From positions 59,252 to 123,251 of the forward strand of contig JBFMGR010000001.1 in the NCBI GenBank assembly GCA_040753135.1: a DNA stretch of 64,000 nucleotides, read 5' to 3'. Position 1 is the stretch's first letter, and each line of letters opens with the position of its first letter. The notes below the pieces were generated by a model. That model was not told the origin of the DNA. It was given only the letters and a program-made list of their open reading frames with translations, and did no database searches. Both the position numbers and the translations under genes were made by a program. Below, piece by piece: positions 2,233-43,283 of this stretch. Origin of the DNA: Patescibacteria group bacterium (lineage in GTDB: Bacteria > Patescibacteriota > Minisyncoccia > UBA6257 > Brennerbacteraceae).

Positions 2233-2307
2233 TGGTCGGGTCGGGGAGAATCGAACTCCCATCGCAGGACCCCCAGCCCTGCATACTAACCATTGTACTA
2301 CGACCCG
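2233..2307 (-). tRNA. tRNA-Pro (anticodon GGG), intact, with CCA encoded.
   Basis: A manual cloverleaf gives acceptor CGGGTCG/CGACCCG, D-stem GTAC/GTAT, anticodon loop CTGGGGG, T-arm GGGAG-TTCGATT-CTCCC, discriminator A and CCA. Confidence 0.8.
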
Positions 2308-2570
2308 ATTGATTTTAATTTTTTAAGCGCTTCTCGATATTGTTTATTAAATAATCGTTTTCCTTCTGTTGTTTTCAAAAACCGTTCCCTTCTTCTGGCG
2401 TCGTTTTCATTTTGATAAGCTTCGTATCCGATAAAAGAAATTGGCCTTCTGTGTTTTGTTGATTTAACTTTGCCGCGTTTGTGTTCTTCAATTCTTTCCC
2501 GCAACCGCTTTGTTAAACCAGTGTAAACCTGATTATTTTTTAAAAGAAGAAAATAAACATAAGTAAACAT
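2298..2570 (-). CDS. GIY-YIG nuclease family protein (UPF0213/YhbQ-like, ~91 aa). Its last codons overlap the 5' end of tRNA-Pro.
   Basis: The N-terminus MFTYVYFLLLKNNQVYTGLTKRLRERIEEH…YEAYQNENDARRRERFLK carries GIY…YIG/R/E hallmarks. The ATG at 2570 follows the hairpin region. Confidence 0.75.
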   Translation of the reverse strand: MFTYVYFLLLKNNQVYTGLTKRLRERIEEHKRGKVKSTKHRRPISFIGYEAYQNENDARRRERFLKTTEGKRLFNKQYREALKKLKSIGS

Positions 2571-2591
2571 AGATGATACTTTATAAGGAAT

Positions 2592-2687
2592 CGCCCCGTT
2601 AGGCAACGGGGCGCCCTGTCGCCTGACAGGGCGAACTCCCATCGCAGGACCCCCAGCCCTGCATACTAACCATTGTACTACGACCCG
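2592..2687 (-). pseudogene. Second tRNA-Pro 5' portion (acceptor through the 5' T-stem plus TTCG), then two tandem hairpins (ccctgtcaggcgacaggg and cgccccgttgcctaacggggcg) in place of the rest of the T-loop. A split or interrupted tRNA-Pro copy.
   Basis: 2636–2687 is identical to the 5' 52 nt of the intact tRNA-Pro; 2592–2631 are two perfect stem-loops. Confidence 0.6.
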
Positions 2688-13043: not shown

Positions 13044-13343
13044 ATGTCAAGAAGTTTAAAAAAAGGACCATACGTTGACCAAAAATTGTTGAAAAAAGCA
13101 GCCAAACTGAAACCCGGAGACAAAACCGTGATTAAGACTTGGTCAAGAGACTGCACCATTGTCCCGGAAATGGTTGGTCTTACTTTTGGGGTTCATAATG
13201 GCAAAGACTTTATTCCCGTGGCAGTAATTGAGGAGATGGTTGGGCATAAATTAGGCGAATTTTCTCCAACCAGAAAGTTTATTAAACATGGCGGCAAAAA
13301 GCAAAAAGCTTTAGAGGCAGCCAAACAAAAACCGACTAAATAA
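13044..13343 (+). CDS. rpsS: 30S ribosomal protein S19.
   Basis: [12 protein letters not shown]…[10 protein letters not shown]. Confidence 0.9.
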
Positions 13344-13375
13344 TTTAATTATCATCAGTAAAAGCATTAGTAAAA

Positions 13376-13503
13376 TTTTATGGATCCCGTTAGAAATTCA
13401 ACCATGATTAAACGAATCAAATTTTTAACCAAAATAAAGTCAACTATTGTCTTTATTTTTTCGAATAATGAATTAACCTTCTTAAATTTCTAACAGGATG
13501 GAC
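13376..13503 (+). mobile_element. MITE-like element (~125 bp) with ~13-bp terminal inverted repeats (cc[c/t]gttagaaatt / aatttctaac[a/g]gg). A second copy lies at 41174–41301. It ends in the ATG of rplV.
   Basis: The two copies are ~75% identical over ~125 nt with conserved inverted termini. The downstream gene's start codon lies inside the 3' terminal repeat (ggATGg). Confidence 0.6.
13380..13493 (+). CDS. Conserved 37-aa small ORF inside the MITE (MDPVRNSTMIKRIKFLTKIKSTIVFIFSNNELTFLNF). Its stop lies 4 nt before the rplV ATG.
   Basis: Frame and length are preserved in the second copy, and many of the nucleotide differences are synonymous. Confidence 0.45.
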   Translation: MDPVRNSTMIKRIKFLTKIKSTIVFIFSNNELTFLNF

Positions 13504-14007
13504 AAAGTTGTTGCTAAATTAAAATATTTAAGAGTTGCCCCGAAAAAGGTCAGGCAAGTAGCCCGCCTGCTCAAGGGGATGAGTTTTGTTGAGGCTGAAT
13601 CCCAGTTAAAGTTTTTGCCCCAGAAAAGCGTTAAACCTTTGTATAAATTATTGATTTCTGCCGGAGCCAACGCAGAAAACAATTACAATCTTTCTCGGGC
13701 CGATCTTTTTGTTGAAAATATTTTGGTTGATCCGGGTCCGACTTTGAAAAGAATGAGAGCCCGGGCAAGAGGGATGGCGGCGCCGATTAGAAAAAGAAGC
13801 TCGCATATTACTTTATTTTTGTCTCCAATCCGGGGCAAACAACTCAAGCGAGTTGCTAAAAAACAAAGTTTAAAGATGAAAAAGCCAAAAAAATCAGCTA
13901 TTCGGTCAGAAAAAGCCGGTTCCCCTCCTAGGCGGCCGATGAAAAAAGAAAGGTTGGCTAAGGCAAGCGGAGTGAAACAGAAAGTTTTTCGGAGAAAGGC
14001 AATTTAA
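13498..14007 (+). CDS. rplV: 50S ribosomal protein L22 with a basic C-terminal extension.
   Basis: AKLKYLRVAPKKVRQVARLLKG…AESQLKFLP…MAAPIRKRSSHITL. Confidence 0.85.
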   Translation: MDKVVAKLKYLRVAPKKVRQVARLLKGMSFVEAESQLKFLPQKSVKPLYKLLISAGANAENNYNLSRADLFVENILVDPGPTLKRMRARARGMAAPIRKRSSHITLFLSPIRGKQLKRVAKKQSLKMKKPKKSAIRSEKAGSPPRRPMKKERLAKASGVKQKVFRRKAI

Positions 14008-41173: not shown

Positions 41174-41301
41174 TGCCATGGATCCCGTTAGAAATTCAAC
41201 GATAATTAAACGAATTAAGTTTTTGATTAAGGCAAAACCGACAACTATCTTCGTATTATTGAATAAAGAATTAACTTGCTTAAATTTCTAACGGGATGGA
41301 T
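41174..41301 (+). mobile_element. Second copy of the MITE-like element; it ends in the ATG of rmuC.
   Basis: Aligns to 13376–13503 with conserved terminal inverted repeats. Confidence 0.6.
41178..41291 (+). CDS. Small ORF, copy 2 (MDPVRNSTIIKRIKFLIKAKPTTIFVLLNKELTCLNF).
   Basis: Same 37-codon length and frame as 13380–13493; its stop lies 4 nt before the rmuC ATG. Confidence 0.45.
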   Translation: MDPVRNSTIIKRIKFLIKAKPTTIFVLLNKELTCLNF

Positions 41302-42336
41302 ATTATTTTAGTGATTGTAATTTTGGGGTTTGTGGTTTTGGCGTTTATTTTTGGCTTTGTCATTTATCTGCTTTTAAAAAAACAGCAAGACGACCAGATT
41401 CAAAATCAGTCAATCAATTCTTTAGGCGAGTCAATCTCCAAGATGCAGGTTCAGCTGATGGAGCATTTGGCCAATCAATTAAGCGCGGTTAGGGGCAGTT
41501 TGGATAATACTGTGGGCAAAAACATTCAGCGGTTTTCCGAAGAGTTTGTTGGCGTTAAAGAAGATTTAAAAAGAGTCGGCGAGATTTACCAAAGCGTTGA
41601 CAATCTTCAAAAAATCTTTAAATCGCCAAAGCTACGGGGCAACTGGGGCGAGGCATCTCTTGAGCATCTGCTTTCCCAGCACTATCCCAAAGAGCTTTAC
41701 GACCTTCAGCATATGTTTTCTTCAGGCGAACGGGCCGATGCGGCGTTTAAACTGCCCGATGGCAAGATAATTGCGATTGATGCCAAATTCCCTTTGGAAA
41801 ACTTTTCCAAACTTCAAGTGGTGGAAACTGATCTGGAGAAAGAAGCAATAGAAAAAACCTTTATCCAGGATGTTAAAGCCCGGATTGACGAGATTGGCCA
41901 AAAATACATTTTGCCCTCAGAGGGGACTTTGGATTACGCGATTATGTATGTGCCGGCTGAAGCGGTTTATTATGAGATCGTTAATCCGGCGACCAAAGCA
42001 AGCAAGGACGACTTGATTTCTTATGCTTGGTCTAAGAAAGTGATTATTGCTTCGCCAAATCTGTTTTACCTGACTTTAAAAACAGTTGAGCATTGGTTTC
42101 GTGATGTTCAGATTTCTAAACAAACCCAAGGTATTTTAAAGAGATTTGAGAGAATCAGAAAAGACGGCGAAAAATTAGCTGAAGATTTCCGGCTTTTGGG
42201 CAAGCACCTGGGCAATGCCCAGTCAGCTTTTAACAACACTGAAAAACGGCTTGATTTAATGGTTGGCAAAGTTGACCAATTAACCTCAATTAAAGTTAAA
42301 GGCGAGCTAGAAGAACCGGAAGGGGAAAGTGAATGA
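41296..42336 (+). CDS. rmuC: DNA recombination protein RmuC.
   Basis: N-terminal transmembrane segment, long coiled coil, C-terminal nuclease-like region (…AIDAKFPLENF…). Confidence 0.6.
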   Translation: MDIILVIVILGFVVLAFIFGFVIYLLLKKQQDDQIQNQSINSLGESISKMQVQLMEHLANQLSAVRGSLDNTVGKNIQRFSEEFVGVKEDLKRVGEIYQSVDNLQKIFKSPKLRGNWGEASLEHLLSQHYPKELYDLQHMFSSGERADAAFKLPDGKIIAIDAKFPLENFSKLQVVETDLEKEAIEKTFIQDVKARIDEIGQKYILPSEGTLDYAIMYVPAEAVYYEIVNPATKASKDDLISYAWSKKVIIASPNLFYLTLKTVEHWFRDVQISKQTQGILKRFERIRKDGEKLAEDFRLLGKHLGNAQSAFNNTEKRLDLMVGKVDQLTSIKVKGELEEPEGESE

Positions 42337-42545: not shown

Positions 42546-43283
42546 ATGCTAGACACCACCCATGTTTTAACTGGTTTGGTTATTGGCAAGTATCTGAAAA
42601 ATCCTATCTTGGCTTTTGGCGCTGGAGTTTTGTCCCATTTTGTTTTAGACGCCATTCCTCATTGGGATGGAACAAAGACGCTTAATGCGTCTTTGTTCCG
42701 AAGCGAAGCGAAGGTGGGAGAAAAGACTTTTTCAAAGTCTTTTCTCCGCAGTGAGGCGAGCGAAGAAACAAAGAGAGCTGGCGTAGCTTTGTTGCGAGCC
42801 GAACAAGGTGGAACAAAGACGCTTAATGCGTCTTTGTTCCGAAGCGAAGCGGAGGTGGAAGGAAAGACGCTTAATGCGTCTTTGTTCCGAGCGGAGCGAG
42901 ATGGAGAAGGGGGGCTAAATGATGCTGAATGCCGAATAAGATTCACCCGAGAGGGCAAGATTATTTTAGGCCTAGATATCTTAATCAGTTTGATTATTTT
43001 TTTATTTCTATCAATCAAAGGCCCGCTCTGGCCCGATTTTCCTAACCCTAATTCGTTATTCATCATTCTTCATTCTAATTTGTCCTGGGTTGCCGGAGTT
43101 TTTGGCGCTTTATTGCCGGACATTTTATTATTGGCTTATATTTTTTATCCTTCAGCCAAATTAAAAAAGCTTTCTGTTTTTGAATTCCATAAAAATATCC
43201 AAAGAAAAATTCCAATGATTCCGGGGTTGGTCTTTCAGTTAATCTGGATTAGTTTTTGCTTGTATTTTTTTGTTTTATCTTGA
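42546..43283 (+). CDS. YdjM/DUF457-like membrane-bound metal-dependent hydrolase, carrying an in-frame ~75-aa hairpin-repeat insertion.
   Basis: N-terminal HVLTGLVIGKYL…SHFVLDAIPHWD and C-terminal GALLPDILLLAY motifs; the middle is encoded by the tandem hairpin array. Confidence 0.5.
   Translation: MLDTTHVLTGLVIGKYLKNPILAFGAGVLSHFVLDAIPHWDGTKTLNASLFRSEAKVGEKTFSKSFLRSEASEETKRAGVALLRAEQGGTKTLNASLFRSEAEVEGKTLNASLFRAERDGEGGLNDAECRIRFTREGKIILGLDILISLIIFLFLSIKGPLWPDFPNPNSLFIILHSNLSWVAGVFGALLPDILLLAYIFYPSAKLKKLSVFEFHKNIQRKIPMIPGLVFQLIWISFCLYFFVLS
42669..42890. repeat. Array of five ~45-bp units, each holding a perfect hairpin (for example ggaacaaagacgc-ttaat-gcgtctttgttcc), embedded in-frame in the ydjM-like gene.
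   Basis: Units 1, 4 and 5 are near-identical. Units 2 and 3 differ in sequence but stay palindromic, i.e. the changes are compensatory. Confidence 0.7.

Follow-up and report, generated by a model that had tools for sequence, protein, structure and literature searches.

The Correia elements (NEMIS) of Neisseria are about 100-150 bp long, bounded by inverted repeats and a short direct repeat, present in many copies, devoid of a transposase gene and transcribed together with their neighbours. Two repeat units of similar build, each 118 nt long, were analysed in a stretch of 64,000 nt (hereafter the window) from a Patescibacteria group bacterium of the Brennerbacteraceae (assembly GCA_040753135.1, contig JBFMGR010000001.1, positions 59,252 to 123,251), one upstream of rplV and the other upstream of rmuC; this 64-kb window was our coverage of the source genome. 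They differ from Correia elements in that the target is a start codon within ATG-R-A (R, purine) rather than TA, an open reading frame (ORF) takes its first and last codons from the ends, the full-length kin code for a GIY-YIG nuclease instead of a DDE enzyme, and the same 13-bp ends recur in different phyla. The units are probably non-autonomous copies resembling MITEs (miniature inverted-repeat transposable elements), whose full-length relatives carry a GIY-YIG gene and insert at, and duplicate, ATG-R-A. The family is apparently an undescribed, very small mobile element of the ultra-small Patescibacteria and also of some Planctomycetota; no prior description was found in the literature searched, including for the end sequences themselves.

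Other described systems share single traits with this family. Free-standing GIY-YIG homing genes (T4 seg, the I-TevI domain) are likewise small, selfish, nuclease-only genes that leave host genes undisrupted, yet seg-type genes have neither inverted repeats nor target duplication, rely on homology to spread between related genomes and possess DNA-binding domains, while here a bare domain of about 90 amino acids (aa), nearer to UPF0213/Slx1, is found with 13-bp ends and a duplicated pentamer at many unrelated loci. UPF0213/YhbQ (COG2827) and the eukaryotic Slx1 domain, which keep the GIY-YIG core residues, are the best sequence and structure matches; they are treated as cellular genes, whereas the present termini are transposon-like and presence varies between near-identical loci. 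REP/RAYT and IS200/IS605 systems resemble the family in their hairpin-forming ends, very small size and short hairpin-only derivatives, but IS200/IS605 elements lack terminal inverted repeats and target duplication, both of which are present here, and the enzyme is GIY-YIG and not an HUH tyrosine transposase. The byp elements of yeast mitochondria, the T4 gene 60 hop and the Rickettsia palindromic elements are also hairpin inserts between identical, target-derived flanking codons that host synthesis survives; here, in contrast, the duplicated codon is the initiator, and ordinary initiation or re-initiation would be enough without bypassing. By its target, its size and the class of its enzyme, the parent element is distinct from known insertion sequences. 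To our knowledge, the prokaryotic transposons catalogued so far use DDE, HUH, serine, tyrosine and Cas1 enzymes.

Each window unit runs from a first ATGGA to a second and consists of ATGGA, the left end TCCCGTTAGAAAT, an AT-rich interior of 87 nt and the right end ATTTCTAAC[A/G]GGA; in both copies the final A of this end also opens the next ATGGA and hence the host ATG. The features are as follows.

13380-13497, forward strand: copy A unit, 118 nt, upstream of rplV, from the first ATGGA to the second
13380-13384, forward strand: copy A upstream ATGGA of the target duplication, its ATG being the captured start of the 37-codon ORF
13385-13397, forward strand: copy A left 13-bp terminal inverted repeat TCCCGTTAGAAAT, coding for the PVRN of the ORF
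13380-13493, forward strand: copy A 37-codon ORF MDPVRNSTMIKRIKFLTKIKSTIVFIFSNNELTFLNF and its stop (TAA at 13491-13493, within the right end), no domain match, interior not homologous to GIY-YIG
13486-13498, forward strand: copy A right terminal inverted repeat ATTTCTAACAGGA, with a single C:A mismatch against the left end
13498-13502, forward strand: copy A downstream ATGGA, start of rplV (L22, 13498-14007)
41178-41295, forward strand: copy B unit, 118 nt, upstream of rmuC, from the first ATGGA to the second
41178-41182, forward strand: copy B upstream ATGGA of the target duplication
41183-41195, forward strand: copy B left terminal inverted repeat TCCCGTTAGAAAT
41178-41291, forward strand: copy B 37-codon ORF MDPVRNSTIIKRIKFLIKAKPTTIFVLLNKELTCLNF and its stop
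41284-41296, forward strand: copy B right terminal inverted repeat ATTTCTAACGGGA, perfect, containing the stop TAA (41289-41291)
41296-41300, forward strand: copy B downstream ATGGA, start of rmuC (41296-42336)

Aligned with both flanking ATGGA (13380-13502 against 41178-41300), the two copies are identical at 98 of 123 positions (80%), and a nhmmer profile built on the pair matched these two alone in the window (E 2e-39 and 7e-37). A 17-mer end motif allowing up to three mismatches had five matches there, against 0.32 expected, and four of the five are the unit ends. The host genes code for a 169-aa L22 (Pfam PF00237, E 9e-34) after copy A and a 346-aa RmuC (PF02646, E 2.8e-56) after copy B, and between the ORF stop and the host ATG stand 4 nt, cagg or cggg. 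A first-pass annotation of this DNA, made from the letters alone, had reported two repeat copies before these genes, terminal inverted repeats of about 13 bp and a TAA 4 nt before a host ATG lying inside the right end, all of which we recovered with the unit refined to 118 nt and the mismatch in copy A. Its description of the units as MITE-like also agrees with what was found: they are short, have inverted ends, a target repeat and empty sites in relatives, occupy two loci in the 64 kb examined and code for no mobility enzyme, and full-length, putatively autonomous elements with the same ends occur in other genomes (loci L045, L244, L252 and L264), with none in the window. In the window copies the inverted ends extend beyond 13 bp to 14-17 bp, and the predicted hairpin has the host AUG partly paired (its A and U) in a stem of 14-15 bp, with fold z-scores of only -2 to -2.4 on the sense strand.

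The full-length members of the family measure about 280-300 bp and are essentially one ORF for a GIY-YIG nuclease of 85-97 aa (UPF0213/YhbQ-like, with a Slx1-like fold) between the 13-bp inverted ends. In L045 the ends enclose 298 nt, the ORF starting at the left ATG codes for a 97-aa GIY-YIG nuclease (PF01541, E 5.6e-17) and stops at the right-end TAA, and the junction TAA-cggg-ATG leads into a host ORF of 525 aa. The other full-length members lie before ychF in Saccharibacteria with a 4-nt ATGA overlap (L244), next to a gene for a phosphoenolpyruvate (PEP)-utilising enzyme (L252) and before nusA in Planctomycetes (L264). In L252 (1-3260) both ORFs flanking the element match the PEP-utilizers domain and may be tandem paralogs or one gene split by the insertion.

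Homologues of the nuclease form more than 2600 clusters at E<=1e-5, and a profile search returned 3797 clusters (50% identity level) at E<=1e-10. Among the best 120 of the more than 2600 clusters, 76 start with M-[N/D/S]-P-V-R and 92 end in LTG or NF; LTG corresponds to CTA ACG GGA TGA, whose TGA overlaps the host ATGA, and NF to AAT TTC TAA. Since these beginnings and endings match the ends in frame, both protein termini are the inverted ends themselves read as codons. The GIY-YIG core is invariant (Y11, Y13, Y24, G26, R34, H38, E58, N84), and an AlphaFold model (predicted local distance difference test, pLDDT, 87.6) is closest to UPF0213 BH0048 and the structure-specific nuclease Slx1 and less close to I-TevI, the best matches being 1ZG2 by sequence (E 1.8e-9) and 1ZG2 and Slx1 by Foldseek (TM about 0.6). 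No end-to-end pair enclosing a larger transposase or another gene turned up, none being convincing among the 120 loci listed in the genome scan described below, and the ends and the nuclease family have the same phylogenetic distribution. Some library proteins of 600-655 aa have a GIY-YIG domain fused in frame. GIY-YIG ORFs have also been noted in non-intron insertions in a survey of rRNA insertions of the candidate phyla radiation (CPR; PMC11270868).

Scanning one genome per species (596 Gb) for the exact 15-mer ATCCYGTTAGAAATT gave at least 120 loci, in a search that was biased insofar as one end had to match the 15-mer exactly. By our own arithmetic, roughly two thousand chance matches are expected for a 15-mer in 596 Gb, and about half of the loci listed are lone matches in unrelated taxa; an inverted partner lies 27-300 nt away in about 55-60 of the 120. 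The 41 canonical elements (ATG on both sides) were located in 37 loci, namely 36 listed genome loci and the window. By label, Patescibacteria or CPR account for 28 of these loci (Saccharibacteria, Nomura-, Kaiser-, Paceibacterota, Morani-, Campbell-, Zambryski-, Brenner-, Doudna-, Kerfeld- and Colwellbacteria) and Planctomycetota for five, the other four having no classification. The search for further inverted-repeat copies proposed in the first-pass annotation thus found the ends to be widespread, mostly in Patescibacteria. Across genomes the interiors are unrelated in sequence and length. In one metagenome-assembled genome, a full-length copy (L045) is accompanied by at least four short copies (L096), with only the ends in common, and a second within-genome pair of short copies (L049) is 64% identical, with upstream ORFs (uORFs) of 14 and 10 codons. 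Members of the window subfamily itself were sought in metagenomes, where a gapped pattern matched none and a 20-mer matched three contigs, all with a different interior.

The inverted repeat of the family is exactly 13 nt long, Watson-Crick pairing being kept in 38-43 of 43 elements at positions 1-13 and falling to chance level at position 14, with compensatory double changes at positions 11-13. Mismatches of the G:T and A:C types are equally frequent. This sharp boundary, together with the lack of bias between G:T and A:C, favours a transposon end recognised as DNA by a protein over a strand-specific RNA structure. Hairpin-only forms with interiors of 27-47 nt occur in Planctomycetota and Omnitrophota (L065, L071, L110, L120); they are REP-like, some of them form tandem or nested arrays, and a flanking ATG is often missing. 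In viral contigs, one of 120 listed matches to the 15-mer had an inverted partner and the rest were almost all unpaired chance matches, while nine GIY-YIG relatives were seen, mostly without ends; neither the 15-mer ends nor the GIY-YIG relatives in these contigs gave evidence of a phage vector. One such relative (L266, an IMG/VR contig, about 1450-1770) has the diverged ends CCCCGTAGGATTT ... AAATCCAACGGGG-TGA-ATG, and related end variants may exist.

An association with start codons is seen in elements defined by their ends alone: of 82 such elements, 44 are flanked by ATGnn in register on both sides and a further 16 have it only to the right, and the duplicated pentamer is ATG followed by A (35) or G (9) and then by A (42) or G (2). 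In 30 of 39 cases, the ATGRA to the right is the start of an ORF of 100 codons or more, which holds for 23% of all ATGRA sites across these loci (P 1e-12). That R-A is preferred behind the ATG indicates a target specificity at the level of DNA, and the excess at real gene starts indicates an added filter, which could be tolerance, the need for expression or both. As many unrelated loci are occupied with only ATGRA in common, the pattern argues against classical homing at a long site.

A pair of filled and empty sites documents the insertion itself. In genomes whose YchF proteins are 92-94% identical, a clean 278-bp insert separates the two states: the empty site reads aatgtaATGAGtttatc, with ATGAG once, and the filled site reads gacgcATGAG, then the insert, which begins with TCCCGTTAGAACC and closes with GGTTCTAACGGG and a second ATGAG, followed by tttatc. 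The genomes with the empty site have the same neighbours and no nuclease gene. At rplV, the spacer between the S19 and L22 genes measures 154 nt in the window and 14 and 3 nt in two relatives (L22 65-67% identical), the closest by L22 with retrievable DNA, and the end motif was not found in the S19-L22 spacers of these two. Deleting one 118-nt unit from the window leaves an ordinary spacer of 36 nt and a gene starting with ATGGAC. The L22 of the window is identical to the NCBI protein annotated from the second ATG, and its N-terminus MDKVVAKL aligns with MTKVVAKL, MSDSVVAKL and MESIIAKL of its closest relatives.

The first-pass annotation had held that the element donates the translational start of its host gene, and had proposed to compare rplV starts in relatives devoid of it. 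That comparison places the ancestral start at the second ATG, and the idea of a donated start has to be abandoned because the spacers of relatives are short, the N-termini align from the second ATG and removal of the unit restores ATGGAC; the end-free spacers and the ychF pair point the same way. These alignments indicate that the element landed on the ATGGA of the host and duplicated it, bringing no new start codon.

The 37-codon ORF has to be read against this background. It starts with ATG in both copies with its frame and length kept, as the first-pass annotation had noticed, and its first six codons (MDPVRN) and last codons (LNF and stop) are the ends in frame. The divergence of about 25% with many synonymous changes reported there was roughly right: 24 substitutions separate the two ORFs over 114 nt (21%), of which 15 fall on codon position 3, five on position 2 and four on position 1, and this amounts to nine synonymous and 11 non-synonymous codon changes. 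The third-position excess is unlikely to be fortuitous (binomial P 0.003, or 0.01 allowing for any phase; a simulation of sampling without replacement gave smaller values), and 11 amino-acid changes compare with about 14 expected in a neutral simulation (P 0.05-0.09). In simulation, however, the open frame survives 24 neutral substitutions 58% of the time, and an antisense frame with coincident third positions is equally conserved, without a start codon. The window pair therefore carries a real but weak signal, at the sequence level, of having been read as codons; the purifying selection on a peptide suggested in the first-pass annotation is borne out to that extent and no further, and this is not evidence for a conserved peptide family. 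As no further copies of the window subfamily turned up in the metagenome scans, the proposed many-copy comparison of non-synonymous and synonymous rates (dN/dS) is impossible.

In the family as a whole, uORFs starting from the captured ATG range from 3 to 97 codons. Among the short copies 27 of 40 stop early, and the 13 that reach the right end compare with 7.8 expected from shuffled interiors (P 0.02); dividing the unit length by 3 leaves a remainder of 1 in 22 of 41 copies. A frame that survives as far as the right end is closed by the TAA 4 nt ahead of the host ATG, is closed by the TGA of ATGA, or continues in frame into the host gene. Given the unrelated interiors and the many early stops, conservation of the 37-codon ORF does not extend to the element family, and the interrupted copies that the first-pass annotation had named as contrary evidence are present at family level and not in the window subfamily. 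On two groundwater metagenome contigs (L258 and L259), an element of 75 nt with the family ends and ATGGA flanks is open in frame and adds a 24-aa N-terminal extension to the host protein.

These observations can be accommodated in other ways than by an element with its own GIY-YIG enzyme. The units could be conventional MITEs moved by an ordinary transposase, for example of the DDE type, encoded elsewhere, with the GIY-YIG gene of longer copies as a passenger or secondary acquisition and the position at gene starts resulting only from an ATGRA preference and purifying selection against disruptive insertions. Sharply bounded 13-bp inverted ends with a direct repeat of 4-5 bp are indeed classical signatures of a transposase, GIY-YIG nucleases are not among the transposases known to us, and some copies sit at sites other than ATG. 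Nevertheless, every full-length copy examined is filled by the GIY-YIG ORF alone with the ends as its first and last codons, 92 of the 120 closest proteins finish in end-encoded residues, no longer end pair enclosing another gene occurs among the 120 loci listed, and ends and nuclease family are co-distributed phylogenetically, so that we regard a conventional MITE as unlikely. A slimmer chance is given to a domesticated cis-regulatory module, in which a leader peptide and hairpin would control the translation of rplV and rmuC, with selection on the peptide or on its translation. An ORF unbroken in both copies, at equal length and in one frame, the third-position excess (15 of 24) and the reduced number of amino-acid changes, the partial pairing of the host AUG and the slight surplus of family uORFs reaching the right end would all suit such a module; on the other hand, it is carried by two unrelated genes, relatives do without it, most family members stop early, the frame is retained neutrally in 58% of simulations and the antisense frame is equally conserved, no Rfam match was obtained, and the end pairing has no wobble bias of the kind typical of RNA. 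That the 37-codon ORF codes for a functional small protein, such as a small basic or hydrophobic peptide carried by the element, is very improbable: the codon-phase bias and the sequence of a basic N-terminal half followed by a hydrophobic stretch speak for it, but the ORFs have no Pfam match at gathering score (best E 0.049), an exact look-up in the assembly index, which had no entry for the window L22 either, found no gene on record for the product, two metagenome scans gave no further copies and the interiors of other members are unrelated.

Several known classes were also considered and set aside. Rfam returned only tRNAs or noise, both for the whole window at gathering threshold and for 13300-13600 with relaxed settings, which together with the low z-scores and the lack of wobble bias speaks against a known cis-regulatory RNA or attenuator; a hairpin acting as RNA is disfavoured by the lack of an excess of G:U-compatible mismatches on either strand, and a terminator by the lack of a U-tract in the window element. 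Ahead of the first ATG in the two elements lie weak sigma-70-like hexamers, ending 3 and 5 nt away from it, at a frequency expected by chance. An integron attC site has its core in the opposite order (RYYYAAC ... GTTRRRY, against GTTAGAA ... TTCTAAC here, with a conserved part of 13 nt and CCC/GGG flanks), and a DNA-uptake sequence, a dif/Xer site, a group I or II intron and ribosomal bypass were rejected on sequence anatomy. A GIY-YIG gene within the window copies was likewise rejected, there being no similarity beyond the end-encoded residues.

Some findings weigh against the interpretation as non-autonomous relatives of a GIY-YIG element. The exact-match scan described above sampled the family unevenly. 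The direct repeat is not always 5 nt, some copies having TG or TGA only, and some copies lack a flanking ATG altogether, such as a subgroup flanked by ACTTG and copies between ATAAA flanks. In L262 (790-1080), a full-length GIY-YIG element that has the ends sits off ATG, with the flanks tttA|TCCCG..CGGGA|TAAaaa, uses its own ATG just inside the left end and lies in a spacer 18 nt upstream of tyrS, so that the start-codon rule has exceptions. The 64-kb window holds no full-length element with these ends, and the one GIY-YIG gene found there is linked to a tRNA and lacks the 13-bp ends. The interiors of the window copies have no similarity to GIY-YIG genes by tblastn on both strands or by the family profile, with only the N-terminal MNPVR aligning, and internal deletion is for this reason a hypothetical origin of these copies. 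Moreover, GIY-YIG enzymes are hydrolytic and we know of none that acts as a transposase. The early stops in 27 of 40 short copies, finally, mean that strict termination-reinitiation is not universal.

With these reservations, a life cycle of the element with its own nuclease can be proposed. Insertion takes place at 5'-ATG-R-A-3', usually where a host gene has its start codon, and duplicates that site; the upstream ATG, behind the upstream region of the host gene and with the transcription and initiation context of the host, becomes the start of the element ORF, and the downstream ATG remains the host start, the right end setting a stop 4 nt before it (TAA-cggg-ATG) or overlapping it (ATGA). 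Ribosomes would initiate at the first ATG, which is predicted to be single-stranded, one nucleotide before the stem, and as the left end is free of stops in the ORF frame, translation of even a six-codon uORF could pass through and melt the stem of 14-15 bp. The host AUG would then serve for re-initiation (TAA-nnnn-ATG or ATGA) or receive the next ribosome. Translational coupling by the element is a reasonable inference and would seem to be built in, because two of three frames meet a stop in the right end, beside the host ATG. About 15 gene starts of the window (e.g., 10982, 12115, 14141, 37249) have AT-rich leaders without a Shine-Dalgarno-like purine motif, and in such leaders the accessibility of the start site is likely to matter.

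The lineage of the window copies would have lost the nuclease; it keeps the 37-codon ORF, from the captured start to the TAA, and has landed at the ATGGA of rplV and rmuC. How the parent moves can at present be sketched speculatively along two routes: the nuclease may cut at the base of the hairpin or cruciform formed by the ends, or it may make a staggered cut at ATGRA followed by copying of the element with ATGRA on both sides, and the latter would explain the variable length of the direct repeat. We infer that mobility is due to the GIY-YIG nuclease, which probably acts on the end hairpin or cruciform, that short copies rely on mobilisation in trans, and that coupling is required for translation of the host gene. 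In its strongest form, which we hold tentatively and at somewhat less than an even chance, the proposal is that the parents are autonomous transposable elements of about 280 bp whose sole protein, a Slx1-like nuclease of about 90 aa, recognises the hairpin or cruciform made by the termini of its own gene. They would live by "start-codon parasitism", using the promoter and initiation site of the host gene and returning the ribosomes at the stop/start junction, and the window copies would be non-autonomous derivatives that are still translated. There is a substantial chance that the parent represents a new class of element.

The GIY-YIG gene of the window deserves separate mention.

2298-2642, reverse strand: only GIY-YIG gene in the window (PF01541), likely start ATG at 2570

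It belongs to the same protein family as the full-length elements (profile E 3.8e-25), and it is a possible, unproven trans-acting partner of the two window copies. The TAG stop of its ORF lies inside the 5' end of tRNA-Pro(GGG) (2233-2307), the first 57 nt or so of this tRNA are duplicated at 2625-2680, and two copies of a double hairpin GCCCTGTCaggcGACAGGGC-GCCCCGTTgcctAACGGGGC are present (about 2592-2632 and 2152-2196), both preceded by GAGTTCG, with a CCCGTT/AACGGG core that matches the core of the MITE ends. The gene appears to represent a second form of the nuclease family, one that targets tRNAs. Two paralogs have comparable settings: one (L012, 465-707) has, as in the window, its TAG stop in the 5' end of a tRNA, and the ORF of the other (L001, 4454-4645) lies between tRNA-like halves.

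Elsewhere in the window, an ORF for a predicted membrane protein (42546-43283) contains a 48-nt tandem repeat (42671-42899; 4.9 copies, 64% matches) with the internal palindrome AAAGACGCttaaTGCGTCTTT, which yields the repeated peptide TLNASLFRSEA.

If the nuclease is the mobility enzyme, a GIY-YIG-based element would join the prokaryotic transposons and, if this is true, the minimum size of an autonomous element would drop to about 280 bp, the smallest one. It would also offer a reason for the thousands of tiny genes of this GIY-YIG nuclease family across the reduced genomes of Patescibacteria. In practical terms, the insert adds an upstream ATG and, in one of three frames, an N-terminal extension, and can mislead gene callers about start sites. 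For the cells that host it, the element illustrates the way in which an operon of essential ribosomal proteins can accommodate an insertion, and its stop/start junction, combined with a hairpin in which part of the host AUG is paired, may provide a natural system in which to study termination-reinitiation in leaders without Shine-Dalgarno-like motifs.

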